Sequence record: NC_055712.1
DNA length: 64,000 nucleotides
Origin: Escherichia phage phT4A
Reading direction: 5' to 3' (one strand)
A program made the translations under genes and the position numbers. Within the stretch, counting starts at the first letter, position 1; the number at the start of each line of letters is the position of its first letter. Under the pieces are notes generated by a model that saw nothing but the letters and a program-made list of their open reading frames with translations, was not told where the DNA came from and ran no database searches. Positions 6,193-56,845 of the stretch are shown here, one piece after another.

Positions 6193-7945
6193 ATGATCAT
6201 CGACAAATTAAACCCGTTGCCGAAGATCCCGTTTGTTGATGGCGTCCCAGATGACGCCACGACTCAAACGAAGATTATTTGGATCAAAAACGGTGAAACT
6301 CTGGACGGTTCGCCAGATAAAGTGTCAAACACTGGTAGTCTTAACCGAACTGGTGTAAACATCCAGCAGAACGCGGTTCAGTTAGAACAAAATACCATCA
6401 CCCATAATGATAAAATCAACGAAGTAATCGATCAGGTTAACTTGATTACTGAAAACATTGATGCTATTGGTGATGAGAGCGTAATCAAAAAAAGTTAACC
6501 AGTTGGATCAGGATGTTCAGGCATTAACTTTATCTAACACCCAAACACAGAACAAGGTAGCACAGTTAACCCTTTCTGTAAATGCTCAGAACGATGAAAT
6601 TGGGGAATACGATCCAGAAAAGGATCCTAAACACCGCACAATTCGTAATGATATCATTTACATTAAGAAAGAAGTTGGTTCATATCCTGGATTTAACGTT
6701 GATGGTGATGTTGACCCCTCTTCTACTGGTACTGGCCTTAAATACCGCGTACTGAGTAACCAACGTGCTATTTCTATGCAGGAAACTCGCATAACCAAAC
6801 TGGAAGATGATTGGGCGCTTTCCGAAGTAGGACAACTGACAGAAGAGGTAAAAGAACTTCGTGCTGAAATGGGTGATTCTGGTCTTGCCACAACCCGATC
6901 AATCTATGCGCGAATCAAGATCCTTGAGGATGGTTCTATTGTAATGCAAAATGAACTTGATGCGATTAATAGTTATATCGGTCGCACGTCAGGTTCAACC
7001 AGTTCCATTAACGATCGTGTGAACAGTCTGGAAAACTCCGTTAGTTCTCTGGCTACACAAATCAATGATCCGGTAACTGGTATCACTGCACAAATTGCAA
7101 CCATTAACGGTCAAATCGGTACGGCTTCTGCTCAGGGTAGTATCCGTTATGATATTGCGGAAACTAAACGCAGATTGATGGATATGGAAATGATTCTGGG
7201 TGAATCCGGCGATGATGGATTGCAGGGACAAGTTGCGATCTTAACTGGTGACGTTGGTGAAGATTCAGATCCTACCAGTATCAAAGGCCGTTTGAGTGTT
7301 GTTGAGGGTGAATTACGCACCAACACTAGCGCACTCTGGGAACTGCAAGGCGTTGTAGGTAACTCTTCTAGTGGCCTCGTTGCAACTAGCCAGCAGATTA
7401 ACAAAGAAATCTATGGTGATGGTGTTAGTTCCGATCCTGTTACTCGCGCTGGTTTGAAAACAACAACCCGCAACCTGTTCACTCAGGTAGGAGATAACTC
7501 CGAAGGTAACGAAACGGGCATTTATGCACTGATTGCCGACCTTACTAAACGTGTTGAGGATTTAGAAGCGTTGAACATTGCACAGGCACTTGCAGATCGC
7601 GTAACTATCGAAGATCTGAATGCTAAACTGGCTCTGTACATCAAAGAAGCTGACGCCGATCTCCGTTATGAGAGCAAAAACCCGCCTCTGTCATTCGGTA
7701 CTAACCTAACTGGTGATACTGAATACACTACTGGCGATCCATTGTCTCTAAGCGTAACTATGAATGGTGGTGTTTCTCCGCTGTCTTACCAGTGGACGAA
7801 AAACGGCGTAAACGTTGGTACTGATGCTAACACATTTACCATCGATTCGCTACAGCCTTCTGATTCCGGAACTTACAAAGTAACGGTAACTGATGCAAGC
7901 CATAAAGTCATCGTTTCTGATGAACTGGCGATCACTGTCGCTTAA
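6193..7945 (+). CDS. wac: fibritin (whisker protein), interrupted by a single-base frameshift in an A7 run at 6487-6493; C-terminal Ig-like domain
   Basis: Track ORFs 6193-6498 and 6503-7945 both match T4 Wac (PFVDGxP..WIKNGE; RTIRND..IKxExGxY) and are joined by removing one A from the A7 run. Confidence 0.85.
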
Positions 7946-7953
7946 CGATTAAC

Positions 7954-7974
7954 AAGGGGCTTCGGCCCCTTTTG
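7954..7974 (+). terminator. rho-independent terminator hairpin (ggggc-ttcg-gcccc + T tract)
   Basis: GC stem with ttcg loop followed by tttt directly after the wac stop. Confidence 0.6.
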
Positions 7975-7983
7975 AGGATCTTT

Positions 7984-8910
7984 ATGATTACGAACAACCC
8001 AGCACAATTAAAAGATGAAATTCTGCGCCGTTTAGGTGCTCCGATCGTCAAAATCGAAGTGACAACCGAACAGGTTTATGACTGCATTCAACGAGCATTA
8101 GACCTATATGCAGAATATCATTACAATGGATCTAACAAAGGGTATATCATTCTCACCCTGGGGCCGGACAACCCGAAAAATATTTTCGATCTGAGTAAAG
8201 AACACATTTTCGCAATTACTAAAGTGTTGCGTACTAACATGGGTTCCCTTGTATCGATGGATGGTACTGCGGTTTATCCGTGGTTTACTGATTTCCTGAT
8301 GGGCCTTACTGGTGGTTCTCTGGGCGGTGGTGGTTGTGCATCACGTACCTACGGAATGAACGCATATGGCGCGGATATGGGCTATTTTACCCAGATGATG
8401 AGCTATCAGCGGTCAATGCAAGATCTCCTGTCTCCGCTTCCGGATTACTGGTATAACGACGACACAGGACAGTTTGCAGTATACGGAACCGTTAAAGATG
8501 GTGATATTGTTGTTATCGAAGCAATGATCAGATCCTTTGTTGATGTACCCAGTATGGTCGGTAACGTCGCTGGATACGCTACAGCGGGTTCTGATGGTGA
8601 AGATAAGCCAACTATAGCAGATATATACAATAACCCCTACAAAGCCGTCTCAGGCGGCGTGAAGGCTGGTCAAGGTACAGGCGTTCAGAGTTCATCCTCT
8701 GCGTATAACAACCGTTGGGTGAAAGATTACGCAACTGCTCTTGTTAAAGAGGTAAACGGTCAGGTGCTGGCTAAGTTTCAGGGTATGCAATTGCCTGGTG
8801 GTGTTGCTCCGGATGGAACCAGACTGATTCAGGAAGCTATGCAAGAAAAAGAAAACCTCCGTCAAGAACTTCTGTTACTGTCTGATGCACTTCCAGTGTT
8901 GATGATGTAA
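7984..8910 (+). CDS. 13: neck protein gp13
   Basis: ATG at 7984 (track start 7972 is a TTG); LKDxILRRLGAPIxxxExTxxQxYDCIQRAL matches the T4 gp13 N-terminus. Confidence 0.9.
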   Translation: MITNNPAQLKDEILRRLGAPIVKIEVTTEQVYDCIQRALDLYAEYHYNGSNKGYIILTLGPDNPKNIFDLSKEHIFAITKVLRTNMGSLVSMDGTAVYPWFTDFLMGLTGGSLGGGGCASRTYGMNAYGADMGYFTQMMSYQRSMQDLLSPLPDYWYNDDTGQFAVYGTVKDGDIVVIEAMIRSFVDVPSMVGNVAGYATAGSDGEDKPTIADIYNNPYKAVSGGVKAGQGTGVQSSSSAYNNRWVKDYATALVKEVNGQVLAKFQGMQLPGGVAPDGTRLIQEAMQEKENLRQELLLLSDALPVLMM

Positions 8911-8919
8911 GGGGGAAAA

Positions 8920-9534
8920 ATGCAATTTAGATTATATCTAGTAGAGTTTAAAACTTCTACGGGAATAAAAATATATGGAGGTAAACGCCATTCTCCATTT
9001 AATGATCCTAGACATGATTGTTATTGCGGATCTGGGGTATACATCAAACGAGCATTAAAAAAATATGGAAGAGAATGTATTGTTAATATACAATGGTCAA
9101 AACCGTTTCCAAACAAGGATTTATTAGCGGAAGCCGAAGAATTACTTGTTGATGAGTTGATAGCATCTTATGATAATTGTGTTAATTTAGTTCGTGGCGG
9201 TAAAGGAGGTGCTTCTTTTTATAATCCAGAAGATAACCCTAATTTTGGTTCTAAACGATCTATTGAATCTAAAATAAAGATGTCAGAAAAGGCAAAAAAT
9301 AGGGTTTATAGCGAGGAAGGACTAAAACGAAGACAGGAAGCCACTAGGGTCATGATTCAACACAGAAAGCCTCGTGATGTTTCTGGAAGCAAAAACCCAG
9401 CCGCACGAAGGGTAATTGTGGATGGAGTAGAATACTCAACATTGAAAGAATGTGGAGATCATTACGGGATAACTAAAAACTCCGTCTTTAGTCGAATAAA
9501 ATCTAAGAAATGGGAGGGATGGAATTATGCGTGA
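8920..9534 (+). CDS. putative Seg-like GIY-YIG homing endonuclease (degenerate GIY-YIG N-terminus, NUMOD-like C-terminal DNA-binding repeats)
   Basis: 204 aa inserted between gp13 and gp14 (no gene there in T4); N-terminus YLVEF..GIKIYGGKR, basic C-terminus with IVDGVEYSTLKECGDHYGITKNSVFSRI. Confidence 0.6.
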   Translation: MQFRLYLVEFKTSTGIKIYGGKRHSPFNDPRHDCYCGSGVYIKRALKKYGRECIVNIQWSKPFPNKDLLAEAEELLVDELIASYDNCVNLVRGGKGGASFYNPEDNPNFGSKRSIESKIKMSEKAKNRVYSEEGLKRRQEATRVMIQHRKPRDVSGSKNPAARRVIVDGVEYSTLKECGDHYGITKNSVFSRIKSKKWEGWNYA

Positions 9535-10273
9535 TTGGGATGATAATTTATTCGCACAGTTGGAATCTGGCGAAGGTGTTGATAATAGTTTAAAAACGGA
9601 AGTTACTAACAAATACGTTAACTGGTACAAGTATAACCCTACTCAACAGTTACATGATTCACTAACAGCCGAAGCAATTCAAATGAAATCTCCGGATATG
9701 TATTACGTCCGTCGAGAATTTGTTAATATTGATAAAATTTTGGGTGAAGACCGTGAATCGAAGTTTACAAAATCGTGGAAAATTGCAGCATACATCGATT
9801 CGTATGCAAACTACGAAGGACAGAGAGACTTTTACAGCAAATTCGGTATGATGTCAAACGATGAAATGACACTTGTGATCAATCCTCGTTTATTTGCACA
9901 TCAAACTGATGGCGGGATCCCTGTTCTGGGGGATTTGATTTATTTCCCTATGGATAATAGCCTGTTTGAAATTACATGGATTGAGTTTGATCCGTTCTTC
10001 CAGTTCGGTGATCGTCCTCAACGTAAAATCAACCTCGTTAAATTTATCTATACTGGTGAAGAATTGGATCCTAAACTGCAACGAAATGAAGGGATTAACC
10101 TTGCTCCAGATGCTGATCTGGATCTCGAACCTATTCGAAATCTTGATGGATTGGCTGATACCAATATTGAACAATACGAAGAAGATCAAGCCTTTGAAGA
10201 TGAAGGCGATGAATTCATTGAATCGTTTGATGTTGTTAACGGACGCGGATCACCGTTCGCACAGTTCCCATAA
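9527..10273 (+). CDS. 14: neck protein gp14
   Basis: 248 aa; NLFA(K/Q)LE, FTKxWKxAAY, GDLIYFPxDNSLFEIxW, LQRNEGIN as in T4 gp14. Confidence 0.92.
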   Translation: MRDWDDNLFAQLESGEGVDNSLKTEVTNKYVNWYKYNPTQQLHDSLTAEAIQMKSPDMYYVRREFVNIDKILGEDRESKFTKSWKIAAYIDSYANYEGQRDFYSKFGMMSNDEMTLVINPRLFAHQTDGGIPVLGDLIYFPMDNSLFEITWIEFDPFFQFGDRPQRKINLVKFIYTGEELDPKLQRNEGINLAPDADLDLEPIRNLDGLADTNIEQYEEDQAFEDEGDEFIESFDVVNGRGSPFAQFP

Positions 10274-10353
10274 ATATAACCAGGGGAAACCCTATACATG
10301 TAAGGGTATAAGATTTCTCCTATACCCGCTTTAACCCATACAGGAAAAATAAA

Positions 10354-11174
10354 ATGTTTGGATTTTGGTATAATAGTTCGCTGCGAAATTATATTGTCTT
10401 GATGGGTTGTCTTTTCAATCACGTGCAAGTTAAACGCATTCGCGGCGAACAAGAAAAATTTATCAAGGTTCCGATTACCTACGCATCAAAAGAAAAATTC
10501 CTGGCATCCATGAACAAGCTGAACTATGCATACAGTCAGGAAAATGTTGCTAAAACGGAAACAATTTTACCACGTATGAATCTATCCCTCGTTGATTTGC
10601 AGTATAACGCAATTCGTAAAACGGGGATCGCGGTAAACCAAAAAATGACGCAGTTACGCGCACCTGGAAAAACAGTAACGCAGTTTAACCCTGCTCCGTA
10701 TCGTCTCATGTTCGAACTGGGAGTGTATACCCGTTACGAAGATGATGTGTTTCAGATCATAGAACAGATACTGCCATACTTCCAGCCGCATTTCAACTGT
10801 CGTATTACAGAATTACATAAAAACGACATTAAAATAGACCGAGATATTAAAATATCTCTGCAATCTGTTTCCCCTGATACCACGTTTGAAGGTGATACAA
10901 CGACACGGCGACACATTGAATGGTCTTTAATGTTTGAATTACAGGGCTACCTGTATCCGCCTGTTAACGAGATTAAAGGCGAGATCAGAACAGTATACAC
11001 GGATTTCTTTTCCAATATGAACCCGTTGGACAAAGACAATTTTGAATCCGTTGATGCTCAGGTGGATCCGGTTGATATGCCTATACAGGATTACACGGGA
11101 GAAGAATACGTTCAAACGTATGCTAATGATATCCCAATTCCTAGCGGTGATCAACCTCCTAAACCGAGGGGCCA

Positions 11175-11178
<4 letters not shown>
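10354..11178 (+). CDS. 15: tail sheath stabiliser / tail completion protein gp15
   Basis: 274 aa; MFG(Y/F)(F/W)YNSS, FIxVPITYASKE, FQIxEQILPYFQPHFN, RRxIEWSL match T4 gp15. Confidence 0.92.
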
Positions 11179-13515
<2,337 letters not shown>

Positions 13516-13534
13516 ATTTAGAGGAAACTTAATA

Positions 13535-15526
13535 ATGGCTTTAATCTCTCCAGGCATTGAAACTAAAGAAACATCGGTACAATCTACCGTTGTTCGAAAT
13601 TCAACTGGTCGTGCTGCTATTGTTGGTAAATTTTCATGGGGGCCAGCTTACCAGATCCGTCAGATTTCTAACGAAGTCGAACTGGTAAACTATTTTGGCT
13701 CCCCAGACAATGACACCGCTGATTATTTCATGAACGCTGTAAACTTTTTACAGTTCGGTCAGGATCTGCGTGTTGTTCGTGTCGTCGATAAAGAAGCCGC
13801 AAAAAACGCAACCGCGATCTATAATCAGATCAAAACCACGATCACCGCTGCTGGTTCTAACTATGCAGTAGACGATCAGATCAAAGTTAAACACAATAAC
13901 GTTGTTATTGAAGAAGATGGTGTTGTTACCAGCGTTGATGATCAGGGTAAAATCCTGTCTGTGTTCATTCCGAGCACTAAGATCATCGCACATGCTAAAC
14001 AGGTTGGTGTATATCCGGATCTATCTAGTGGCTGGACTACAGAAATCATTTCCAGTTCTTCTGGTGTTTCTGCTACGATTACAATCGACGGCGTAGAAGT
14101 TGATCCGGGTATTACTCTGCTCAACCTTGATACCGCAAAAGAAACTATTCAGGCAACTGCTTTCCAGGAACTTTGCACCAAATACCAGCTACCGTCTGTT
14201 ATTGCAATTTATCCTGGCGAAATGGGTAGCACCGTAACGGTTGAAATTCTGTCTAAAGCTGCATACGATTCTTCGGCTGTCATTAAGTCTTATCCTTCTG
14301 GTAAGTCTGGTAAAAACAGCGGTCGCAGTTCGATGAACTTTGGCCCTCAGAATGATAACCAATACGCGTTTATCGTTCGCCGTGGTGGTATTATCCAAGA
14401 AACGTTTATCGTGTCAACCGCTAAGGGTGATAAAGATATCTACGGTTCAACGATCTACATGGATGATTTCTTTGCAAACGGTGGTTCGCAGTATCTGTAT
14501 GGTACGTCCCTAAACTGGCCTGTCGGATTCTCCGGCGTTCTGGAACTGGGCGGCGGTACTTCTGCAAACTCCACTGTAGGCGCTGATGAACTCATGGCTG
14601 GTTGGGATATGTTCGCAGATCGTGAATCTCTGCATGTTCCTCTGCTGATTGCGGGTGCTTGTGCTGGCGAAACTGCCGAAATTTCGTCTACTGTACAGAA
14701 ACACGCTGTGTCTATCGGTGAAACCCGTTCAGATTGCGTTGTATTCGTTTCTCCGCCGCGTTCTGCTCTGGTTAATATCCCACTGGCTCAGGCCGTTGAT
14801 AACCTCGTAGAATGGCGTACAGGCTACAAAATCGGTAATACTACCCCAGTTGATAATAACATGAACGTAAGTTCAAGTTATGCGTTCATCGACGGTAACT
14901 ATAAGTTCCAGTATGATAAATACAACGATGTTAACCGTTGGATCCCGCTCGCGGGTGATATGGCTGGCCTCTGTGTTTATACCGATCAGGTATCGCAACC
15001 GTGGATGTCTCCGGCTGGCTACAACCGTGGTCAACTGCGTAACTGCATCAAACTGGCTATCGAACCGACCAACGCGCATCGCGATTCTATGTACCAGGTA
15101 CAGATTAACGCGGTTACTGGTTTCTCTGGTGGTGCCGGATACATTCTGTACGGTGATAAAACCGCAACGACTGTTCCAAGCCCGTTTGACCGTATCAACG
15201 TTCGTCGCTTGTTCAACATGATCAAGAAAGACATTGGCGATAACGCAAAATATAAACTGTTTGAGAATAACGATGATTTCACTCGTTCTTCCTTCCGTAT
15301 GGATGCAGGACAGTATATGTCTAACGTTCGCGCTCTGGGCGGTGTATACGATTACCGTGTGGTTTGTGACACTACGAACAACACGCCGGATGTTATTGAT
15401 CGCAATGAGTTTATTGCATCAATCTACGTCAAACCAGCACGTTCTATCAACTACATCACACTGAACTTCGTAGCAACCTCAACTGGTGCGGATTTCGATG
15501 AGTTGATTGGATCAACGTCAGTATAA
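13535..15526 (+). CDS. 18: tail sheath protein gp18
   Basis: ATG at 13535 gives MALISPGIETKETSVQSTVV, matching the T4 gp18 N-terminus; track ORF start 13466 overlaps gp17 and is rejected. Confidence 0.95.
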   Translation: MALISPGIETKETSVQSTVVRNSTGRAAIVGKFSWGPAYQIRQISNEVELVNYFGSPDNDTADYFMNAVNFLQFGQDLRVVRVVDKEAAKNATAIYNQIKTTITAAGSNYAVDDQIKVKHNNVVIEEDGVVTSVDDQGKILSVFIPSTKIIAHAKQVGVYPDLSSGWTTEIISSSSGVSATITIDGVEVDPGITLLNLDTAKETIQATAFQELCTKYQLPSVIAIYPGEMGSTVTVEILSKAAYDSSAVIKSYPSGKSGKNSGRSSMNFGPQNDNQYAFIVRRGGIIQETFIVSTAKGDKDIYGSTIYMDDFFANGGSQYLYGTSLNWPVGFSGVLELGGGTSANSTVGADELMAGWDMFADRESLHVPLLIAGACAGETAEISSTVQKHAVSIGETRSDCVVFVSPPRSALVNIPLAQAVDNLVEWRTGYKIGNTTPVDNNMNVSSSYAFIDGNYKFQYDKYNDVNRWIPLAGDMAGLCVYTDQVSQPWMSPAGYNRGQLRNCIKLAIEPTNAHRDSMYQVQINAVTGFSGGAGYILYGDKTATTVPSPFDRINVRRLFNMIKKDIGDNAKYKLFENNDDFTRSSFRMDAGQYMSNVRALGGVYDYRVVCDTTNNTPDVIDRNEFIASIYVKPARSINYITLNFVATSTGADFDELIGSTSV

Positions 15527-15533
15527 CATGTAA

Positions 15534-15549
15534 GGGGCTGAAAAGCCCC
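15534..15549 (+). terminator. hairpin after gp18 (ggggc-tgaaaa-gcccc)
   Basis: GC-rich inverted repeat immediately downstream of the gp18 stop. Confidence 0.5.
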
Positions 15550-15557
15550 TATAAATA
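15550..15557 (+). promoter_or_regulatory. T4-type late promoter box TATAAATA upstream of gene 19
   Basis: Exact TATAAATA 18 nt upstream of the gp19 ATG. Confidence 0.6.
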
Positions 15558-15574
15558 CACATAGAGGTTAGAAA

Positions 15575-16060
15575 ATGCTTACTGATATTGTACGCGCCTT
15601 TGAATCCGGTGATTTCGCACGTCCGAACCTGTTCGAAGTAGAGATCCCGTACCTGGGCAAAAACTTTAAATTAAAATGTAAAGCCGCTACTATGCCAGCG
15701 TCTACCGTTGAAAAAGTTCCGGTAGGTTACATGAACCGCAAAATTAACGTTGCTGGTGACCGTACCTATGATGACTGGACAATCACGGTATATAACGACG
15801 ATGCACACACAACCCGTGATGCAATCGTAGCATGGTCAAACATGCTGCATGGTATGGGTGAAGACATTACAGGGGATATCCCTGCAAACTACAAAAAAAC
15901 CGCTACGGTTAAACAAAAAAACCGTAACGACGAAGTAACCGCCGAACATACCATTTATGGCCTGTTCCCGACCAACGTTGGTGAGGTTACTTTAGACTGG
16001 GATAGCAACAACGAAGTGAGCACTTTTGAGTGTACTTTCGCGCTAGACTGGTGGGTTTAA
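15575..16060 (+). CDS. 19: tail tube protein gp19
   Basis: 161 aa; RAFESGDFARPNLF(E/Q)VEI, VGxMNRKINVAGDRT, LDWDSNNE match T4 gp19. Confidence 0.95.
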   Translation: MLTDIVRAFESGDFARPNLFEVEIPYLGKNFKLKCKAATMPASTVEKVPVGYMNRKINVAGDRTYDDWTITVYNDDAHTTRDAIVAWSNMLHGMGEDITGDIPANYKKTATVKQKNRNDEVTAEHTIYGLFPTNVGEVTLDWDSNNEVSTFECTFALDWWV

Positions 16061-16064
16061 ACGC

Positions 16065-16072
16065 TATAAATA
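16065..16072 (+). promoter_or_regulatory. late promoter box TATAAATA upstream of gene 20
   Basis: Exact TATAAATA between the gp19 stop and the gp20 start. Confidence 0.55.
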
Positions 16073-16075
16073 TAG

Positions 16076-16095
16076 GGGTAGCAATACCCCTTATC
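16076..16095 (+). terminator. hairpin (ggggtagcaatacccc) after gene 19
   Basis: Inverted repeat followed by a T-rich stretch. Confidence 0.45.
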
Positions 16096-16115
16096 ATTAT
16101 TTTTCGGAGTTGTAA

Positions 16116-17690
16116 ATGAACTTTTTTGGATTAGACAATGTGTTAGGGTTTTTCAAAAATTTCGCCAAACAGGATGAAATGGAATTTGAAGCCCAATTAA
16201 AAGATGATACAGGTTCGATTGCGCCTCCGAAAAATAACGACGGGGCGCACGAAATCGAAACGGACTTATCAAACCAGCGTTATTCTTCTGTGTTCCAACA
16301 GTTCTATTCCGGACAGGATCCGCGAATTCAGAACAAAACACAGCTAATAAATACATACCGTGGCATCATGACATACCCGGAAGTGGAAAACGCTGTTTCT
16401 GAAATCATTAACGAAGCGATTGTTAATGAACAAGGAAAAGATATTGTTACGATGGATCTTACTAAAACGAATTTTAGTAAAAATATCCAAGATAAGATCA
16501 TGGAAGAACTCGATACCGTAATGAATATTCACGATTTCGATAACCGAGGCTCTCGTTTATTCCGTGATTGGTATGTTGATTCGCGTATCTATTTCCATAA
16601 AATCATGCACAAAAATGAAGCTGACGGCATCAAAGAATTGCGCCAGTTAGATCCCCGTTGCATGGAACTGATCCGAGAATCGGTTACAGAAACCCTACCC
16701 GGTGGGGTTAAAATTTTCCGTGGCTATCGTGAATACTTCGTATACACCGCACCGAAAAACGGTTATAGCTACAACGGACAGATTTATAGTCACAATGACA
16801 AGGTAAAAATTCCTCGCTCTGCGATTGTTTACGCTCATAGCGGCCTTGAAGATTGCGACAACAACATTATAGGCTACCTGCACCGCGCGGTCAAGCCAGC
16901 TAACCAGTTGCGTTTGCTGGAAGATGCTATGGTGATTTACCGTATTACCCGTGCGCCTGAACGTCGTGTGTTCTATATCGACGTAGGTCAGATGGGTGGC
17001 CCTAAAGCTACACAGTACGTAAATAACATTGCACAGGGCTTAAAAAACCGTGTTGTATATGACGCGAGCACTGGTAAAGTTAAGAATCAGCAAAATAACC
17101 TGTCAATGACAGAGGACTATTGGCTGATGCGTCGTGATGGTAAAGCAGTTACCGAAGTTTCAACGCTTCCTGGTGGCACTGCCTTCTCTGATATCGACGA
17201 TGTTAAATGGTTTAACCGTAAGCTGTATGAAGCGTTGCGTATTCCGTTAAGCCGTATGCCTCGCGATGATGGCGGTATCCAGTTGGGTAACGATGGCGGT
17301 ATTACCCGCGACGAATTGAACTTTAGCAAATTTATTCGCGAATTGCAAATTCAATTCAACCCTGTTCTTGCGGATCCGTTAAAAACTAACTTGATCGCGA
17401 AGAAAATCATTACAGAAGATGAATGGGATGAAAACGTAAGTAAGATTGCTTTTGTATATCAGCAAGATTCTTACTATTCCGAAATCAAAGATATTGAGAT
17501 TTTGGAACGCCGTTTAAACCTGATGGGCCAACTTGAAGGAGTGGTCGGCAAATATATCTCCCATAAATACGTAATGAAAGAAGTTCTCCGGATGTCTGAT
17601 GAGGAAATTCAAAGCGAAGCCAAACAGATAGAAGAAGAATCAAAAGAAGAACGTTTTAAAAATCCAGAAGCGGAAGAGGAAAACTTTTGA
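16116..17690 (+). CDS. 20: portal vertex protein gp20
   Basis: 524 aa (T4 gp20 524 aa); extensive co-linear identity (GYLHRAVKPANQL(R/K)LLEDA, NLSMTEDYWL, DEEI(Q/E)xEAKQIEEESKE). Confidence 0.97.
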   Translation: MNFFGLDNVLGFFKNFAKQDEMEFEAQLKDDTGSIAPPKNNDGAHEIETDLSNQRYSSVFQQFYSGQDPRIQNKTQLINTYRGIMTYPEVENAVSEIINEAIVNEQGKDIVTMDLTKTNFSKNIQDKIMEELDTVMNIHDFDNRGSRLFRDWYVDSRIYFHKIMHKNEADGIKELRQLDPRCMELIRESVTETLPGGVKIFRGYREYFVYTAPKNGYSYNGQIYSHNDKVKIPRSAIVYAHSGLEDCDNNIIGYLHRAVKPANQLRLLEDAMVIYRITRAPERRVFYIDVGQMGGPKATQYVNNIAQGLKNRVVYDASTGKVKNQQNNLSMTEDYWLMRRDGKAVTEVSTLPGGTAFSDIDDVKWFNRKLYEALRIPLSRMPRDDGGIQLGNDGGITRDELNFSKFIRELQIQFNPVLADPLKTNLIAKKIITEDEWDENVSKIAFVYQQDSYYSEIKDIEILERRLNLMGQLEGVVGKYISHKYVMKEVLRMSDEEIQSEAKQIEEESKEERFKNPEAEEENF

Positions 17691-17933
17691 TGAAAGAATT
17701 TATCGAAGCAATCAAAAGCGGTAATCTGGTGGAAGCTAAAAAAAACTTTTTACTCCATCATGGAAGACCGCAAAGAAGCGCTTCGTCACGAATTGCGCGT
17801 TGAACTTGCCGAAGCTGTACGCATCGAAGGCGAAGAAGACAAAGAAAAAGACGACGAAGGCGCTGATAAAGATGACGAAAATGGCGATAAAAAGCCAGCC
17901 GAGGATGATAAATCCGATAAAGATGATGAGTGA
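17690..17933 (+). CDS. 67: prohead core protein gp67, interrupted by a single-base indel in an A8-C-T5 tract (17738-17751)
   Basis: N-terminal 24 codons (MKEFIEAIKSGNLVEAKKNF) in one frame, acidic C-terminal part (..IEGEEDKEKDDE..) in the +1 frame; removing one base restores a T4 gp67-like ~81 aa protein. Confidence 0.7.
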
Positions 17934-21490: not shown

Positions 21491-22126
21491 ATGAAACATA
21501 TTATCTACAAAATAACAAATTTGGTTAATAATAAAATTTATGTTGGTGCTCATTCAACAGAAGACATCAACGATTCATACATGGGTTCAGGGGTGGCTAT
21601 AAAGGCGGCTCAGAGGAAGTATGGTATCGATAAATTTATAAAAGAAATATTACATATTTTTGATACCCGTGAAGAAATGTATGAAAAAGAAAGAGAGATT
21701 GTTAATCTAGAATTTGTTAATAATCCACATACATATAATATGGGTATCGGTGGTGATGGTGGCCCTATGTTGGGTATGTTTCATTCAGAAGAGAAGAAAC
21801 AAGAAATTTCCAAGATTACTAAAGAGAGAATGACAGATGAAGTAAAATCTCGTCTCTCTAAACTTAAAAAGGGTAAACCACAGTCCAAAGAATCCAACAG
21901 GAAGCGCTCAGAGACGTTAAAAGCTAAATATATGAATGGACGTATAGACAGAGAGTATAAACCTCTCACAGAAGCGCACAAGGCGAAATTAGGCCGTTCT
22001 GTATCGATAGATGGAGTTGTATACTCATCCGGATCGGAGGCGGCAAAATCCCTTAGTATGTCCCACTCTGGTTTAAAATATCGGATTAATAGCGACAAAT
22101 ACCCTACCTGGAAATTTGTTGCATAA
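21491..22126 (+). CDS. GIY-YIG homing endonuclease, SegD-like
   Basis: 211 aa; canonical N-terminal GIY-YIG module (IIYKITNLVNNKIYVGAHS ... GSG), basic C-terminal DNA-binding tail; sits between 23 and 24 as segD does in T4. Confidence 0.8.
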   Translation: MKHIIYKITNLVNNKIYVGAHSTEDINDSYMGSGVAIKAAQRKYGIDKFIKEILHIFDTREEMYEKEREIVNLEFVNNPHTYNMGIGGDGGPMLGMFHSEEKKQEISKITKERMTDEVKSRLSKLKKGKPQSKESNRKRSETLKAKYMNGRIDREYKPLTEAHKAKLGRSVSIDGVVYSSGSEAAKSLSMSHSGLKYRINSDKYPTWKFVA

Positions 22127-39854: not shown

Positions 39855-40113
39855 AAGTAGAAAAANNNNNNNNNNNNNNNNNNNNNNNNNNNNNNNNNNN
39901 NNNNNNNNNNNNNNNNNNNNNNNNNNNNNNNNNNNNNNNNNNNNNNNNNNNNNNNNNNNNNNNNNAAAACGTAGGTTATGGACAGGATATACCCTGGAGG
40001 CTTTACAGGCCGACCCAGAACGTTCTAAGCTACTTCCTTACATTGATGTTCTGATTGATGGTAAGTATGAAAAAGATTTGCCAACAGAAAAAGCCGTTTC
40101 GCGGTTCAGATAA
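39851..40113 (+). CDS. nrdG: ORF interrupted by scaffold gap; the C-terminal 46 codons resemble the NrdG (anaerobic RNR activase) C-terminus
   Basis: MKVEK start overlaps the gp49 stop; after the gap ..WTGYTLEAL...VLIDGKYEKDL resembles E. coli NrdG ..WTGYKLDEL...VLVDGKF.QDL. Confidence 0.45.
39866..39965. other. scaffold gap (100 N)
   Basis: Exactly 100 N; true size unknown. Confidence 0.99.
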
Positions 40114-40166
40114 TCAACGTATGATCGAATTCGCAATAAAAATTCGATAGAAATTAAAAATATTGC

Positions 40167-46309: not shown

Positions 46310-47245
46310 TGTCAAACTTAATGGCGGGGTTCGGCCCCGATTTTGTAGAAACGCAAATTCTATCGGAAACAAACAGCGTAACTTACAGAATAACCGCAAA
46401 GGCAACACATCCCAATGCGGTTCCTAATCAGTATGAGTTTACACTAAATCAAAAGGCGGTAGGGACACCGCCTAGTGTTGGGATCAACGTATGGAGAATT
46501 AACAATGCTGTAGTTGATCCAATTAAAACCTTCACATTATCGAATGATAATTCAGCAACTGCAAACAAAGCGTTTGTTGAATATATGGATGCTCAACCTT
46601 CTGGGCTGTATTTGATAATGACTAACGGTGAATACAAAACAAGCCAAATCGTTGATGATTGGTTTGCTAAAAACAGATCCGTTATGTGGCAAGGCGCTGA
46701 TTTCGCTCAGAGATTCCCAAATTCTGCATATGTTGCATTGTATGGGGCTTCAAAATCTCGTATACTGATTGAATCGTTTTACGCGAACGATGGAGTTTTA
46801 AAAGAAGATTCACGCGCATCAATCGATCTTGTCTATGATAACGTTGGTGATGTTGGGCGAACTGGTGTACCTTTCCGATCTGTTGAAGATACGGAAGAAT
46901 ACAATTCAACCAATGGATCTGAATATAAAGTATATCCTGTTGCAAACCCAGTGATCTCTAAACTGGCTGATTATGGTATGGCTCCTGGATTAGCTATGAT
47001 GATTGCTGGTGATTTTTACGCCAGCAAAGCATTATTGGATGCTGGATCAACAACAAGGGTTACTGTTCGATGGTTTACGGGTACTGCTCAAACTTCATCA
47101 TCGGTGATTGAAGTTCCTGCAAATAAACCTGATGAGTGGTTACGATTTGAACAGTTCTATACGATCCCTAGTGGTTGTGATGGATTTAACGTTGCTGTAT
47201 CTCGTTATCCTAAACCCGCTACGGATAGTTTATCTGCGTATCCGT
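46309..47245 (+). CDS. 35: long tail fibre hinge protein gp35 (3' end lost in scaffold gap), assigned by position
   Basis: ATG overlaps the gp34 stop; 312 codons before the gap (T4 gp35 is 372 aa); the track's 1640-aa ORF is an artefact of reading through N. Confidence 0.55.
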
Positions 47246-47345
47246 NNNNNNNNNNNNNNNNNNNNNNNNNNNNNNNNNNNNNNNNNNNNNNNNNNNNNNN
47301 NNNNNNNNNNNNNNNNNNNNNNNNNNNNNNNNNNNNNNNNNNNNN
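47246..47345. other. scaffold gap (100 N)
   Basis: Exactly 100 N; probably hides the gp35 3' end, possibly gp36, and the first codons of the distal fibre gene. Confidence 0.99.
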
Positions 47346-50300
47346 TTTAGCAAAAATTCAATTCCTACGTAGCACAGTTGCGGGGAAAACACCTACTACA
47401 AGTCAGCTTGCAGATGGTGAACTGGCGATCAACATGGCTGATTATGCCATTTACACGAAAAATGGTTCTTCGATCGTTCAGTTAGCGGGTAAAGGTATCC
47501 CAGAAACAAATACCAAAAAATTAACAGTAAATGGGCCTAGTGCTCTTAATGATACCGTTACCGTAGCGGAAGGTAAAACTATTACTTTCACCAACGCGGA
47601 TTTGAGCGGGGGTATGGTTCGTCATATCACTGGTAAAAACGCGCTTAATGATGGTTGGTACATCGGTTCTGGTGGTGAGAGCAATAAAGGGTTTTTAGAA
47701 ATCGGTACAATTGATGACGGTGATGAAGAGATCCGTTTCGTTTCCCGTGGTTCTGGTGATACTGTTCGTCGTACTCTGAAACTTATTGATTCCGGTGGTA
47801 ACACTCGCGTACCAGGTAACATCTATATTGATGAAGCTATGGGCGGTGGTGGTTCTGCTTTTATTTCAAAAAACAAAGCATATTTCGGTGCTGGCGGTGC
47901 TGATATCTATATGCGTAACACTGCTGGCGGTGCGACAAATCAGTTAACGATCACTGATGGCGGTGAATTGCTGTTTCAAGCAAAACCTGTATACTGGGAC
48001 GGTCGTAAACCGACTTTAACCGAATTGGGGATCGGGCGGGTTGAAAACGCGCGTCAAATGCAGCAAGACAATTGGCCTATAACTACAGGTAATGAAACCC
48101 GATGGGTTAAAGTTGCTCTTTTAAAAGATCCTGGCTCAGGTCATAGTCGCTTGCAACTGATGGTGACTAACGGCGGTAACTATGGTTCTACACGCGGATC
48201 GTTCGATTTTATCGATTGTTCTGCTCGTAGTATGCCTTCAACATTAACGGCTGCAAATATTCGTTCTTATCTGCAAATTCGTCGATTGGGCGATCCGGCA
48301 ATGGATGACACTAACCAGATGCGTTATAGTTTGGTTCGCACATCCGAAGGTTTGGAATTGTGGTTTACTCAAAGATCGTTCATCGGTAGTACAAAAATTG
48401 CTCTGTTATCTACGGCTGGCGTGACTGAATATTATATTCCTAGTGGATATACATCACAAACAACCGCTCCGGATGGTTTGATCGAGAGTAAGCCTATTCG
48501 TATCTATGACGAAATGAACAAACCTAGCCTTGACGATGGTACTGATGGTATTCTGTCTGTTGCTAAAGGTGGTACAGGCGCAAGTACAGCGGCTGCTGCT
48601 CGCACAAACTTAGGTTTGGGTACTGCTGCAACCCGTGATGTTGGTACAGGTTCCGGACAAGTAATGCTTGTTGGTGCTTACGGTTTAGGCGGTAAGGGTA
48701 CATCATATAGCATCGCAAATGCTCGCGACTTCCTGAAACAACTGCGTACTGATGGTTCTCAGTTCATGCGAAATACGCTTGGTACTGACATTAACTATGG
48801 TATGGGCGCAAGTTTTTATAGTTCCGTATCAGATGTTCATGCAGTGATCTCGGTTGATTGGAATACTGGTCGCGTTAAAGTTGGTGCAACTAATGATACT
48901 AACCTTAACTCAGATACAGGAAGAATCAACTTCCAGGAACTGTACGGTACTGCATTTAAACCGACTCCGGATGACGTAGGGGCTGTTGCACGTGCTGGTG
49001 ATACGATGTCTGGTGATCTGACGATCTCTAAAGTGTCGCCTGGTTTCCATTTGAATGCTGAGAGCGGAAACTCCGTAATTTGGTTTAAGTATAAAGGGGT
49101 TGAAAGTGGTGCTGTGTGGGCGTTGCCTAATACTGCCTCTTCTGGTGAAGTTCGCATTCGTGCCAGAACGTCGGGCGGAACGACTGGGGGCGAATTCTCA
49201 TTTAAATCAGACGGTACATTTACATCACCTGGTAATATCAATATTACTAGCGGCGCTTTCAACGGTAAAAGTGTCAATACTCAGTATGCGAACTTTAATA
49301 ACACAAGTTCAACAACAACCGAACAAACCGTTTCTATTAGTGGTTCGCAGCACACTCCTCTGTTACTGAATAGACCGACTAACTCGAACTTGTCTATCGG
49401 GTTTAAACTTTCCGGAATGAACATGAAACGTTTGGGTATCGATGTAAACGGTGATATTCGTTACGGTGAAGCCGAAAACCAGACACAAAACGCATGGCTG
49501 TTGACTTCGGATACCATAAACAGATGGAGTGTTAACTTCGGGCGTGATATTAACGTTGCAGGTGTAGTTAATTCAACTGGTGGATTTACTGGCCCTGTTA
49601 CTGCATATGATTTGACCGGGGTAACTCAGGATCTTGATGCTTTAACATTGAACAATGCCGAACCAGGACATATTAAAGTTTATTCGTGCCGTAGTATGGG
49701 TGGCGGTGATAACATCACCAATAAACCTTCCGGCGTAGGTGGTAACTTTATTGTTATCGTTGAATGTCTCCGTAAAGTCGGCGATACTGATTACACTAAC
49801 CGTCAAGTATTACGCGCATCGGACAATAAACGCAGTTGGGAACGTTGGTTTACTGTTAGCGGTACTGCTAAAGCCTGGACACCGTGGAGAATGAACGTTG
49901 TTAGCGGAAACGATGACGATGTATCATTTAAATCTGTTACCACAACTACAGGAAACCTGAACAGTGGAAACGATCTGATTGTTGCGAACAACGCTCGCGT
50001 AGGTGGCAACTTAGGGTTAGGTGGTGCTTCTTCCACGACATACACTGATAAAGGTGTTGTGATTGGTAACGGTAGTGCGCTGTTAGAATCCACTGATGGT
50101 CGCATGATTATTGGTAGTTCTGGTGCTGGTCGTGCTGTTGAATTGCGTCCTGGTGGCCCAACTCAAACCAACAACGGGATCAAAGTGACTGCTACCTCTG
50201 GAAGTGGTGGTGATACTGCGATCGAGTATGCGCAAGGGGTGAAAATCCGGGCAAATAACGGTGGTGCGTTGATTATTTCTGCTAAAGCTGGACAAACGAT

Positions 50301-51219
50301 TTATCTACGTCCTCAAGGAGATACATCCAGCACAAACGAAACAAGGATTGATTCTAGTGGTAACATGATAGTTAATGGTAATATCAGTGCAAACGGAAAT
50401 ATGTCTGCTACTGGTACGTTAACTGTTTCTGGTGCTACTACATTAAACAACACATTAACGGTTAATAATGTAGGGCCAATCGAGAAACGGGGGATCAGGA
50501 CGTATACAGAAGGTTCTGTTACTGTCAACGAAACCGACGGCATTACGATGTTTGGTAATGGCACAATTCATGGCACAATGCGATTAGTTGAGAGAGTGAA
50601 TAATACTACTTTCATCGGTCTGCAAACTTCCATTAATGACACTACAAACGGTTGGTTTGAATTCCACCACACAGGAAAATTCAAATCAAACAATATCGAA
50701 GCCTCTGGTAATATTGTTAGTTTGACTGGTTCCATTGGTGCTGTTGGTGCATTGACTGTAACGGCTCCTTCTTCTGATAACGGTACTGACCATATTTGGT
50801 TCCGTAACTCTGATGGATCTGAACGTGGTGTTATCTATATGCCAGGCAATGCTAATATTGGCGGTTTCCGCGTTCGTGGTGTGGAATGGCAATTTGATGG
50901 CGGTGCTAGTCAGTTTATCGGCCCTGGTGCTCGTTGGCGTATTCACCCTGATGGTAATATTCAGGCTGATGTTTTTAGCGGTTATCTGAATAACTACATC
51001 AATGATCGGTTTAACGCGTGTGCTCAGTGGGTTCGTACTGGTGCTCAACAGGACTTTGGTCAGATCGGTCGTCCTGCTCCTGGTTTAACAGTTCCTGCTG
51101 GTTGGGTTTTAGTTGGTCTTAACGCCAACGGTAACGAAGCTAACCAGAACATGCAGTTAATCGGTGGTCGTTTGCAGGTATGGAAGAATAACGTTCAATG
51201 GGTTGATTCTGCAACTTGA
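47346..51219 (+). CDS. 37: long tail fibre distal subunit, gp37-type (fibre A; 5' end in gap)
   Basis: Begins (truncated) LAKIQFLRSTVAGKTPT.SQLADGELAINM, matching the T4 gp37 N-terminus MATLKQIQFKRS..AGTRP...LAEGELAINL; about 1290 aa; no C-terminal chaperone domain; followed by a gp38-like chaperone. Confidence 0.8.
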
Positions 51220-51226
51220 TAAAATA

Positions 51227-51240
51227 GGGGCTTCGGCCCC
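51227..51240 (+). terminator. GC hairpin (ggggc-ttcg-gcccc) after fibre A, weak T tract
   Basis: Same hairpin type as other terminators in the window but followed by ttcattc. Confidence 0.35.
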
Positions 51241-51261
51241 TTCATTCTTAAAGGTAAAATA

Positions 51262-51663
51262 ATGATTGTTAAACAAATGAAAGGTATTCGCTGGCATCAT
51301 AATTTTGAAGGTGGTGCTTACTATCGTGATTGTAATGACAAGTGCTGGTATGAATTTCGTAATTCTTTGGATAAAAATTCCCATATCATTATAGTTGATG
51401 CTAAAACCAATAAAATCATTAACTATTATAACGGTGATGATCCTACGATGATTGGATTGTTTGCTGATAAAGAAATGATTCTTAATGTGTATCAGCTATC
51501 AGAATTTCCTGTTAATGACTGGGGAGAATTCTCTAAGCGAGAATTTAAGTTCGAAGATGATAAGGTAGTCATGACGAAAGATGTTGAACTTCCGAAATCT
51601 CGAACAAAAGAAGATATCATGGCAGATTTGATAAAACTTCAAAAAGAGCTAGAGGTAATGTAA
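51262..51663 (+). CDS. 38: tail fibre assembly chaperone, gp38-like
   Basis: 133 aa directly after fibre A; pattern similarity to the T4 gp38 chaperone (..IIIVDAKTNKIINYY.. vs ..YAVVFDERTQDWIY..; ..FPVNDWGEF.. vs ..FDEPGEFDIW..). Confidence 0.5.
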   Translation: MIVKQMKGIRWHHNFEGGAYYRDCNDKCWYEFRNSLDKNSHIIIVDAKTNKIINYYNGDDPTMIGLFADKEMILNVYQLSEFPVNDWGEFSKREFKFEDDKVVMTKDVELPKSRTKEDIMADLIKLQKELEVM

Positions 51664-51669
51664 TTTCTA

Positions 51670-51747
51670 AGGCTACCTATATGGTAGCCTTTTTGTTGTA
51701 TGCTAAATATACCTATAGCAACCTAAGAAGAGTCTTATAAAATGGCT
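51670..51747 (+). repeat. intergenic element copy 1: terminator hairpin (aggctacc...ggtagcct + T5) + AT box + ATGGCT start
   Basis: About 90% identical to 56445-56513. Confidence 0.8.
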
Positions 51748-51847
51748 NNNNNNNNNNNNNNNNNNNNNNNNNNNNNNNNNNNNNNNNNNNNNNNNNNNNN
51801 NNNNNNNNNNNNNNNNNNNNNNNNNNNNNNNNNNNNNNNNNNNNNNN
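51748..51847. other. scaffold gap (100 N)
   Basis: Exactly 100 N; flanks share ggct, compatible with a direct join giving ATG GCT GAT TTA (MADL...). Confidence 0.99.
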
Positions 51848-54800
51848 GGCTGATTTAGCAAAAATTCAATTCCTACGTAGCACAGTTACGGGGAAAACAC
51901 CTACTACAAGTCAGCTTGCAGATGGTGAACTGGCGATCAACATGGCTGATTATGCCATTTACACGAAAAATGGTTCTTCGATCGTTCAGTTAGCGGGTAA
52001 AGGTATCCCAGAAACAAATACCAAAAAATTAACAGTTGATGGGCCTAGTGCTCTTAATGATACCGTTACCGTAGCGGAAGGTAAAACTATTACTTTCACC
52101 AACGAGGATTTAAGTGGTGGAATAACTCGTCATATCGTTGGCAAATGCGCCACTAATGATGGTTGGTACATCGGTTCCGGTGGTACAAGCAACAATGGTA
52201 TTCTTGAAATCGGTACTATTGATGACGGCGTTGAAACCATCCAGATCGTACAGCGCGGCGCAGGCAACGTTGAAGCCAGAAAGTTAGTCTTGCTTGATGG
52301 TTCGGGTAATACGAATCTTCCTGGTGATTTAAGATTAACCACCAATAAAGCTGTTAAAATTTCGAATGGAAGCACTCTTACACTAGAAATGGGCGTAGGT
52401 GCTAACGATGTATACATTAAAAACCTGAAAGGCTCTGGCGTTCTTCAATTAACCAATGATAGTAATCTGTCGTTCAGAAATTACCAGGTTTATTATGCCA
52501 TGAGTGGAAAAGGCCCTGGTAAAGATGGTACTCTTCTGACTAATGTAGAAAACGAGCGCCAACTTAAACAGGATAATTTCCCTATAACTACAGGCAACGA
52601 AGCTCGGTGGACTAAAGTTGCTCTTTTAGTAGACCCCGGCTCAGGGCCGAGTCGCTTGCAACTGATGGTGACGAACGGCGGTAACTTTGGTTCTACGCGT
52701 GGCTCTATCGACTTTATCGATTGTAGCGCTAGAAACTTTCCCGCAACATTAACAAGCAGTAACATTCGTTCTTATCTGCAAATTCGTCGAATCGGCGATC
52801 CTGGACTTGATGGCACAAACCAATTACGTTATAGTCTAGTTCGTACCTCTGAGGGTTTAGAACTGTGGTTTACACAACGCGCGTTTATTAGTGGTGTTAA
52901 AGTTGCTCTGCTGTCTATTGATGGTAATACTAAATATTATCTGCCTACTGGTTACACGACTACTTCAACTGCTCCAGAAGGTTTAGTTGAGAGTACGGCT
53001 ATTCGTATCTATGATGAGGTAAACAAGCCTAATCTCGACGATGGTACTGATGGTATTCTGTCTATTGCTAAAGGTGGTACAGGTGCAAGTACAGTAGATG
53101 CCGCTCGCACAAACTTAGGTTTGGGTACGGCTGCAACCCGTGATGTTGGTACAGGTTCCGGACAAGTAATGCTTGTTGGTGCTTACGGTTTAGGCGGTAA
53201 GGGTAAATCCTATAGTAGTTCAACCTCTCGCGATTACCTGAAACAACTGCGTGCTGATGGTTCTCAGTTCATGCGAAATACGCTTGGTACTGAAATTAAC
53301 TATGGTATGGGCGCAAGTTTTTATAGTTCCGTATCAGATGTTCATGCGGTGATCTCGGTCGATTGGAATACTGGACGCGTTAAAGTTGGTGCGACTAATG
53401 ATGCTAACTTGAACTCAGATACCGGAAAAATCAGCTCTCAGGAACTGTACGGTACTGCATTTAAACCAACTCCGGATGACGTAGGGGCTGTTGCTCGTAC
53501 TGGTGATACAATGTCTGGTGATTTGCTTATCAGTAAAGAGTCACCTGGGTTATTTTTGAATGCCACTAATGATACCGGAAACTCTGTAATTTGGTTTAGA
53601 AACAAAGGAGTTGAGACAGGTGCTGTATGGGCAATACCTAACACCGAGTCTTCGGGTGAGGTTCGAATTCGTGCTAGAACGACTGCTGGGGTCACAGGCG
53701 GCGAGTTCAAATTTAAATCTGACGGTACATTTACATCACCTGGTGATGTAAATATCACCAGCGGTGCTTTCAACGGTAAAAGTATCAACACTCAGTATGC
53801 GAACTTTAATAACACAAGTTCAACCACAACCGAACAAACCGTTACTATTAGTGGTTCACAGCACACTCCGCTGTTACTGGATAGACCGACTAACGCGAAC
53901 TTGTCTATCGGGTTTAAACTTTCCGGAATGAACATGAAACGTTTGGGTATTGATGTAAACGGTGATATTCATTACGGTGAAGCAGAAAACCAGACAAACA
54001 ACGCATGGCTGTTGACTTCGGATACAGTAAACAGATGGGTTGTTAACTTTGGTCGTGATATTAACGTTGCTGGTGTGGTTAATTCGACTGGTGGATTTGC
54101 TGGCCCTGTCGCAGCGTATGATTTGGCTGATGTTAAACTAGATCTTAATGATTTAACGCTAACTGGCGCTACCCCAGGCCATGTTAAAGTTTATTCATGC
54201 CCTAGTATGGGTGGCGGTAATAACATCACCAATAAACCTTCTGGCGTCGGTGGTAACTTTATTGTTATTGTTGAATGTCTCCGTAAAATAAACGATACCG
54301 ATTACACTAACCGTCAAGTATTACGCACATCTGATAGTAAACGCAGTTGGGAACGTTGGTTAACTGTTAGCGGTACTTCTAAAATCTGGACACCGTGGCG
54401 TGTTAATATTGTTAATGGGAATGATGACGATGTATCATTTAAATCCGTTACCACGACTACAGGAAACCTGAACAGCGGAAATGATTTGATTGTTGCTAAC
54501 AACGCTCGCGTAGGTGGTAACTTAGGGTTAGGTGGTGCTTCTTCAACGAAATACGCTGATAAAGGTGTTGTGATTGGCAAAGGTAGTGCTCTGTTAGAAA
54601 CTACTGATGGTCGTGTGATTATTGGTAGTTCTGGTGGTGGTAATGCTGTTGAATTGCGTCCCGGTGGCCCAACTCAAACCAACAACAGGATCAAAGTAAC
54701 TGCTACCTCTGGAAGTGGTGGTGATACTGCGATCGAGTATGAACAAGGCGCTAAAATTCGTGCTAATAATGGTGGTGATTTGATTGTTTCTGCTAAAGCA

Positions 54801-55823
54801 GGTCAAGCAATTTATCTGCGACCGCAAGGTGATGCATCCAGCACAAACGAAACCCGTATTGATGCAAACGGTAGTATCACGATTAACGGCAATATTAACG
54901 CCAACGGTACATTAACTTGTACTGGTGGTGCTGTTAACGGAGACTTGACTGTATCAGGAAAAGTAGATATCACTGGAAACCAGTTAAAAACTACATCGCT
55001 CTGGGTTACTGGAGATGCTGCTGTTAACGGTGTTTTAACTGTTGATGGAAGGGCTAGGTTTAATCAAGAGTTCATTGTATCAACTTCGGTTAACGTCCAG
55101 AACACTGGTAACAGTCATTTGGTCTTCCGTAAAGCTGATGGTACAGAAAAAGGACTTATTTGGGCTGATGAGCCTGGTAGCGTTAGTATAAGAGCAGGTG
55201 GTGTCTCTGGGCCAACGTGGAATTTCTGGAACAGTGGTTCTTGCCAATTCCCAGGTGCTATTAGTAACTTTAATGGTGTTAATAGTACTACTAATTACCC
55301 TGGCGGCGGAAGTGGCGCGTATTTAAATACCGCTGGCTTAACAAGTAGATTTAGTAATGGTGCTTATGTTTCCTTATACTTCCAAGAATATGTAGGAAAT
55401 TATCACCAGGCTATTCTTAATGTTAACGGCTATGGTCGAGATGACAATTTCTATTTCAGGGCCGGCGGTGACTTCTTCTGTACTCGTAACGGTTCTTTTG
55501 ATAACGTTGAGATTCGTTCTGACCGTAGAGCCAAATCGGATATCAAAGTTATTGAAAATGCTTTAGAAAAGGTTGAAACATTATCTGGTAATACTTATGA
55601 ACTTCATAACACTTCTGGCGGTACTACTCGTTCTGCTGGGTTGATTGCTCAGGAAGTTCAAGAAATCTTACCGGAAGCAGTTACTCAAGATAATGAAGAA
55701 GATGGCGGTATGCTTCGTCTGAATTATAACTCAGTAATTGCACTTCTTGTTGAATCTGTTAAAGAGCTTTCTGCCGAAGTTAAAAATCTTAAAGCAGAAA
55801 TTGAAGAACTTAAATCTAAATAA
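51848..55823 (+). CDS. second gp37-type distal tail fibre (fibre B) with C-terminal S74-type intramolecular chaperone domain
   Basis: Reads (M)ADLAKIQFLRSTVTGKTPT... from the gap edge; co-linear with fibre A at 70-95% aa identity over about 1100 aa, then a different tip. Confidence 0.8.
55518..55823 (+). other. C-terminal intramolecular chaperone (peptidase S74-like) domain of fibre B
   Basis: SDRRAKSDIK.IENALEKVETLSG.TYEL......RSAGLIAQEVQEILPEAV...........LNYNSVIALLVESVKEL matches the T5 pb1 / endosialidase CIMCD consensus. Confidence 0.8.
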
Positions 55824-55826
55824 TGC

Positions 55827-55850
55827 ATGGGGCTTCGGCCCCATCTTTTA
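55827..55850 (+). terminator. hairpin (atggggc-ttcg-gccccat) after fibre B
   Basis: 7-bp stem, ttcg loop, then ctttt. Confidence 0.5.
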
Positions 55851-55862
55851 GGAGAAATAACT

Positions 55863-56390
55863 ATGGCAGTAACAGGGCCGTGGGTCGGAAGTTCAGCAAA
55901 GGCTGAAACTGGTGAGTCGTGGATGGCTCAAGCTGGGGCCAAATTAAGAATAGGGACACCGTTTTGGATGTCTAATATGATTGGACAAAGCGTATTCCAT
56001 TTAATTTTCAGAATTAACTATGCACAGGGTTCTTCTGGTGATCCATCTAGATATAGAGGATTCTTTAAAAGAGGGTTAGCAGTAAGTGTAGGAGATTCTG
56101 CTAACCAACCGACGCTGAATGCGTTCCCTGGCGGAGATGTGGGTTCACTAGTAGCTATTACAAATATCAAAGGCGACCCTTATTGCCTTTCTATTTGGAA
56201 TGGTCAAGATAGGCGAGTTAAAGTTTCTATTTTTAGAAGCGATGGAGCCGAACAATACGATGTTTATTTTAGCGGAACTACTATGGCTGACGGGTGGAGA
56301 AGGTATAAATGCGAAGATGCTGGAGGTCTCAATGGGTATTTTGAGGCTAGAATGGATAACCAGTTTGGTGCTTTATTAGAATATGTTTGA
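55863..56390 (+). CDS. hypothetical protein in the gp38 position downstream of fibre B (possible fibre accessory/adhesin)
   Basis: 175 aa from the ATG at 55863 with AGGAG RBS; Gly/Ser/Trp-rich; no family recognised. Confidence 0.5.
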   Translation: MAVTGPWVGSSAKAETGESWMAQAGAKLRIGTPFWMSNMIGQSVFHLIFRINYAQGSSGDPSRYRGFFKRGLAVSVGDSANQPTLNAFPGGDVGSLVAITNIKGDPYCLSIWNGQDRRVKVSIFRSDGAEQYDVYFSGTTMADGWRRYKCEDAGGLNGYFEARMDNQFGALLEYV

Positions 56391-56444
56391 TAGGTAAACC
56401 AACAAATTCACCTCATAATATTAAATAGATTAAAAGGCTACCAT

Positions 56445-56513
56445 ACAGGTAGCCTTTTTGTTGTATCCTAAATATACGTATAGTAACCTAAGAAGAGTCT
56501 TATAAAAATGGCT
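56445..56513 (+). repeat. intergenic element copy 2 (terminator hairpin + AT box + ATGGCT holin start)
   Basis: About 90% identical to 51670-51747. Confidence 0.8.
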
Positions 56514-56742
56514 GAGAGAAATCCCGTAGATAAACTAGCCTTATTTGATCGGGTAATCTCGTTTGTGATGGGTGTGAAAACATGGAAACAATTGCTGATA
56601 AAAATAATTCTAATAATGGTTATGTTTCTTATGGTAGTAACTTGGTACAAATGGACTGATATATTCCCGATGATAAAAGGTGCCCTTGTAGTCGATACAA
56701 GGGCTATCGAAATGGAAAGAACTGAAAAGTTTAATCAATCCG
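56508..56742 (+). other. t: 5' portion of holin gene t, duplicated on the left side of a scaffold gap (probable unmerged contig overlap)
   Basis: 56506-56742 is identical base-for-base to 56843-57079. Confidence 0.85.
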
Positions 56743-56842: not shown

Positions 56843-56845
56843 AAA

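Follow-up and report, generated by a model that had tools for sequence, protein, structure and literature searches.

Single-base extensions of A-runs that split wac and gene 67 in a draft T4-type phage scaffold are most probably homopolymer over-calls

Homopolymer-length errors are a known feature of draft assemblies produced by pyrosequencing, semiconductor or single-molecule long-read sequencing, where the error profile is dominated by indels and artefactual frameshifts result. In T4-type phages, runs of six or seven A are also classic sites at which replication slippage produces real frameshifts, and the Streisinger A-run hot spots of the T4 rII and lysozyme genes correspond to real mutations obtained by selection or screening. 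A further group of described systems comprises the sites of programmed frameshifting or transcriptional slippage, such as the A AAA AAG of E. coli dnaX, the A6G or A7 of IS elements and the G/GT site of the phage tail chaperones. These known sites are conserved, mostly of the -1 type, usually accompanied by stimulators, and give rise to two useful products.

The two loci considered here, in which the genes for the fibritin Wac and for the prohead core protein gp67 are each split at a run of A, can be compared with all of these systems. They resemble draft homopolymer errors in that the apparent over-call falls in the longest runs, is private to one sequence and can be corrected to a conserved ORF, and in that the substitutions, unlike the indels, are clean and further errors pile up at contig ends. 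They differ from them in that the change is confined to 2 of the 43 long runs, which suggests a largely polished consensus in which some errors persist, from whichever platform. With the T4 Streisinger cases they share the A6-A7 context, the kind of phage and the +1-base outcome, but here a head-assembly gene is hit, two events occur together, and neither is found in more than 100 relatives. With regard to the programmed sites, the likeness lies in the presence of an A-run at the frame junction, and none of the other properties listed above is seen.

The 64-kb stretch of DNA that was analysed (hereafter, the window) shows a T4-type gene order, with gp7 to gp12, wac, gp13, gp14 to gp20, gp67, gp68 and gp21 to gp24. 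Megablast searches with the wac and gp67 regions hit over 100 Klebsiella phages from the genus Slopekvirus at 98-100% identity, and by sequence comparison the window belongs to this genus, as a KP15-like Klebsiella phage of the Straboviridae. The features under discussion are collected in Table 1.

Table 1. Coordinates, within the window, of the split genes, the extended A-runs and the indels close to contig ends.
Feature	Position	Strand	Details
wac 5' fragment as read	6193..6498	+	frame 0, 101 codons, TAA stop 6496-6498
A7 run, one surplus A	6487..6493	+	A6 in all relatives
wac 3' part	6494..7945	+	+1 frame, 483 aa + stop; Fibritin_C and C-terminal Ig domain
gp67 5' fragment as read	17690..17803	+	frame 0, 37 codons, then stop
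A8 run, one surplus A	17738..17745	+	A7 in all relatives; sole A8 in the window
gp67 3' part	17745..17933	+	+1 frame, 62 aa + stop; conserved, acidic
Contig start after the first N gap, nrdG 3' end	39966..40140	+	window-unique -T at 39974, +A at 40086, +AA at 40135
Window-unique +T in gp35	47239..47245	+	7 nt from the end of the contig starting at 39966

In wac, the stop codon of the 5' fragment comes just 3' of the A7 run, with positions 6481-6498 reading GTA ATC AAA AAA AGT TAA, and residues 1-100 of this fragment are identical to the Wac protein of phage VAC13. Deletion of one A yields a Wac of 583 aa that is 100% identical to its VAC13 counterpart. Against the PHROG fibritin profile, residues 2-579 of the corrected protein are covered and the break is spanned; it also matches Pfam Fibritin_C plus an Ig domain. 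The original prediction had placed the split at the A7 run and had held that the removal of a single base would restore the protein, and on both points the coordinates, the anatomy of the fragments, the alignment (A7 against A6) and the profile that spans the break are in agreement with it. Apart from the extra A, the wac DNA shares 99.9-100% identity with VAC13, PTP25 and KP1LMA, and the gene shows no decay besides the indel. In T4, wac is dispensable; by analogy, a real frameshift in wac alone would probably be viable.

The tract in gp67 consists of the A8 run, a C at the following position and a T5 run (17747-17751), and the ORF reads GCT AAA AAA AAC TTT TTA at the junction. The 37-codon fragment contains only 18 authentic residues, which are the first 18 of the protein. 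The break had been attributed to the A8-C-T5 tract as a whole; the split does lie there, but the T5 is unchanged in comparison with the relatives, so that the claim can be narrowed to an extra base in the A8 and not in the T5. As had also been proposed, the removal of one A restores the protein, giving a gp67 of 80 aa that is 100% identical to VAC13 gp67 and matches the PHROG prohead profile (1-80 of 81) and Pfam GP67 (1-80 of 80), both of which extend across the break. Gene 67 was reportedly described as essential by Volker and colleagues in 1982, and a true gp67 null would be unlikely in a viable phage, because T4 head assembly needs gp67. In a review of the T4 head, IPI-III, gp68 and Alt are listed as not essential for assembly, a list from which gp67 is absent, and gp67 is present at ~340 copies in the prohead core (PMC9958956).

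The distribution of the extended runs was investigated with queries of 81 nt and 91 nt that lie across the wac and gp67 sites, with the run at their centre. An ungapped match was found at the wac run in none of 107 related phage records and at the gp67 run in none of 111, and among the matches listed at both sites, all span one base fewer. The exact A7 (wac) and A8 (gp67) strings are absent from IMG/VR. When the length of the run was allowed to vary, the patterns gave no match in the genome collection; the wac pattern was found in IMG/VR in KP15 only, with A6, and the gp67 pattern was found in three metagenomic contigs, all three with A7. Additionally, an exact-sequence look-up of the truncated ORF products in a large public gene-position index returned none, a string scan for a window-private hairpin flip gave no match, and a literature search for frameshifts in Slopekvirus or in fibritin returned nothing relevant. 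As far as these collections reach, the extra-A state is private to this sequence, with no independent isolate or contig carrying it.

Alignment with VAC13 shows exactly one surplus A in each run (A7 against A6 in wac, A8 against A7 in gp67), and no single-base indels other than these two were found over the first 28 kb of this comparison. In the corrected window there are 43 mononucleotide runs of at least six bases, the longest being of 7; the gp67 run, as the corrected A7, is one of five A7 runs, the longest in the window. Were two insertions placed at random, the probability of both lengthening such a run would be about 1e-6 to 2e-5, and the events are therefore homopolymer-driven; each indel does lie within a mononucleotide run, as the original prediction had stated. 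Such a placement fits in vivo polymerase slippage and length miscalling alike, and by itself does not separate them. A census against four relatives, with mainly VAC13 as reference beyond 47 kb, detected an indel-type length change in 2 of the 43 runs, on which grounds the occurrence of widespread homopolymer errors was rejected. The A7 runs at 1456, 9057 and 15893 are the same as in the relatives, and a third private A7 (15915-15921), considered as a possible indel, proved to be a synonymous G-to-A substitution.

With regard to the quality of the assembly, the window is interrupted at 39866, 47246, 51748 and 56743 by four N gaps, each exactly 100 long, the first of which coincides with the absence of ~5 kb of VAC13 comprising nrdD and neighbouring genes. 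The end of the fourth contig and the start of the fifth share an overlap of 238 nt that is 100% identical and was not merged. Moreover, the distal tail-fibre region (gp37) is present in two versions, 85-92% identical, placed in tandem as the third and fourth contigs. The window is thus a reference-ordered draft scaffold, and the sample probably held more than one strain. Close to its start, the contig that follows the first gap carries three indels in nrdG, all within 170 nt and in DNA that is otherwise identical to four relatives; their effect is to put 37 codons out of frame and then to shift the last ten codons again. These indels constitute independent evidence of indel errors in the assembly. 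Window-unique small indels in coding DNA amount to six, all of which break the frame, none being a multiple of three, and four of them are located no more than about 170 nt from a contig end.

The behaviour of substitutions is different. These were counted at positions where the window differs from relatives that agree among themselves, the relatives being VAC13, KP1LMA (its first 50 kb), phi_KPN_S3 and Earwig_ER32 for 1-47 kb of the window and VAC13 only beyond 47 kb, plus KP1LMA aligned at one site. The 77 window-unique substitutions comprise 60 synonymous, 12 non-synonymous and 5 non-coding changes, a pattern that points to real divergence under purifying selection, with the genes of the lineage functional and the base identities trustworthy. 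The anomalies are confined to the indels, as is typical of a sequencing or consensus process prone to this class of error.

Taken together, these observations make it very probable that both broken genes are artefactual and represent homopolymer over-calls in a draft scaffold, because the extra base is private, both genes once corrected match their counterparts in relatives exactly, other frame-breaking indels are present and the substitutions are clean. The original prediction had favoured sequencing error over biology, and the private A's, the identity of the corrected genes to VAC13, the gapped draft, the indels at contig ends and the clean substitutions all bear it out. The draft consensus would have over-called each A-run by one, reading A6 as A7 in wac and A7 as A8 in gp67, and the error may have originated in base-calling, in the consensus or in polishing. 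Most likely, the genes of the phage itself for fibritin (583 aa) and gp67 (80 aa) are both intact, as they are in all relatives. Against an artefact, it can be noted that only 2 of the 43 long runs are affected, and that both lie within the interior of a long contig, both are +A and both are on the same strand. In a rival reading, one or both indels would be real and very recent, the product of Streisinger-type slippage in the phage stock or in a mixed population, and A-runs are indeed where real slippage concentrates. The wac allele would then be a whisker-less null, and gp67 would be rescued by co-infecting wild type or by weak slippage, either +1 on tRNA-Lys or by RNA polymerase on the A-run, regenerating the wild-type sequence. 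The two gp37 alleles suggest that at least two related strains were present, so that complementation could be possible, and a +1 shift on AAA-AAA-A reads IKK-VNQ in wac and AKK-TFY in gp67, which is the wild type in each case. Such a real origin is nevertheless unlikely, though somewhat less so for wac, since over 100 independent isolates and every other collection searched lack the extra A's, and it is improbable that a single genome would have fixed two independent frameshifts, including one that hits a T4 head-assembly gene. Furthermore, four more frame-breaking indels near contig ends, in DNA otherwise identical to that of relatives, cannot be functional, and the substitutions show continuing purifying selection. 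Two fixed real frameshifts are less economical than over-calling. Were the extra A's real, this would be a rare T4-like phage with a frameshift in a head-assembly gene, and nothing here supports that.

The slipperiness of A-runs also bears on programmed recoding, in which a +1 ribosomal frameshift or transcriptional slippage would yield both a short and a full-length product. The AAA-AAA-A sequence permits +1 re-pairing of tRNA-Lys, and the resulting full-length proteins are predicted to be wild type. A recoding site would be expected to be conserved, yet the run is in frame in every relative, and the 80 nt that follow each site give no stronger fold than their shuffled versions (z = -0.01 and +1.39). 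The zero-frame products would be stubs of 101 aa and 37 aa, neither of which is found as an exact sequence in the public gene collection, and the ~340 copies of gp67 per prohead, a figure for T4 (PMC9958956), are far above what unstimulated +1 slippage would supply. Programmed recoding was rejected as extremely improbable, the arrangement being neither conserved nor followed by a downstream structure. A related idea, in which truly length-variable A-runs would heritably turn the whiskers and the head-core protein on and off by phase variation, with residual +1 slippage on Lys codons producing the exact wild-type proteins, is very improbable as well.

The main value of these observations is that of a quality flag. 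Were the sequence annotated unchanged, fibritin and gp67, plus nrdG and gp35 at contig ends, would be recorded as false pseudogenes or split genes, in an N-gapped scaffold that mixes two tail-fibre alleles. Claims of truncation, gene loss or recoding in this sequence should first be compared with the finished Slopekvirus genomes, of which there are more than 100. The extent of the problem was assessed with a census of truncations, in which every ATG-ORF of at least 45 aa from the same four relatives was mapped onto the window, with the same change of reference beyond 47 kb as for the substitutions; wac and gp67 are the only genes broken against all four. The concern raised at the outset, that other apparent truncations might be false, thus holds at contig ends and gaps, but not elsewhere, no other ORF of at least 45 aa being broken against the four relatives. 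The remaining sequences flagged by this census were dismissed as broken genes and correspond to unannotated alternative-frame or antisense ORFs.

The scaffold of phT4A is interrupted by four gaps of identical length, and for the first two of them the loss can be estimated by comparison with the related phage VAC13.

Scaffold gaps in the window and sequence lost relative to VAC13
Gap	Coordinates	Length	Loss relative to VAC13
1	39866-39965	100 N	~5 kb, nrdD and neighbours
2	47246-47345	100 N	~0.9 kb, end of gp35 to gp36
3	51748-51847	100 N	
4	56743-56842	100 N	

The distal tail-fibre region, gp37/gp38, is present in the scaffold as two alleles placed in tandem (47346-51747 followed by 51848-56742), which share 85-92% identity with each other. 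Moreover, the end of the second allele (56505-56742) recurs exactly at the beginning of the contig that follows (56843-57080). The tandem alleles, together with this repeated contig end, suggest that the sample contained more than one strain or that an assembly bubble was left unresolved.

Several private indels, that is, differences seen in the window while the relatives carry another version, are located close to contig ends. The 3' end of nrdG (39966-40140) contains a -T, a +A and a +AA, and gp35 presents a +T at 47239, all of which break the reading frame within DNA that is otherwise the same as in the relatives. With regard to A-runs, an A5 is found at 56504, directly upstream of the start codon of the holin gene, where both VAC13 and the contig with the other allele (51735-51738) have an A4; since this site is intergenic, the additional A may be a variant or a further +A miscall. 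In gp19, an A7 run (15915-15921) is seen in the window only; an indel was ruled out as its source, as the run derives from a synonymous G-to-A substitution (CAG AAA to CAA AAA).

Between gp14 and gp15 lies a hairpin (10304-10327), GGGTATA-AGATTTCTCC-TATACCC, whose loop is present as the exact reverse complement (GGAGAAATCT) in all relatives compared. None of the 110 phage records matched the window version, which represents either a small inversion private to the window, with the 7-nt inverted repeats as its borders, or a further irregularity of the assembly.

Between gp13 and gp14, the window carries an additional gene of 204 aa (8920-9534) that most relatives lack, with 99.6% identity to its counterpart in the related phage Earwig_ER32 and ~79% in 13 other records. 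Its product is classified as a free-standing homing endonuclease because the N-terminus is GIY-YIG-like and the C-terminus corresponds to an I-TevI-type DNA-binding domain. A second free-standing GIY-YIG homing endonuclease, with Pfam matches to GIY-YIG, NUMOD3 and I-TevI DNA-binding, is encoded between gp23 and gp24 (21491-22126). This gene is absent from VAC13 and present in many relatives, including KP15, whose GenBank record annotates it as SegD homing endonuclease.
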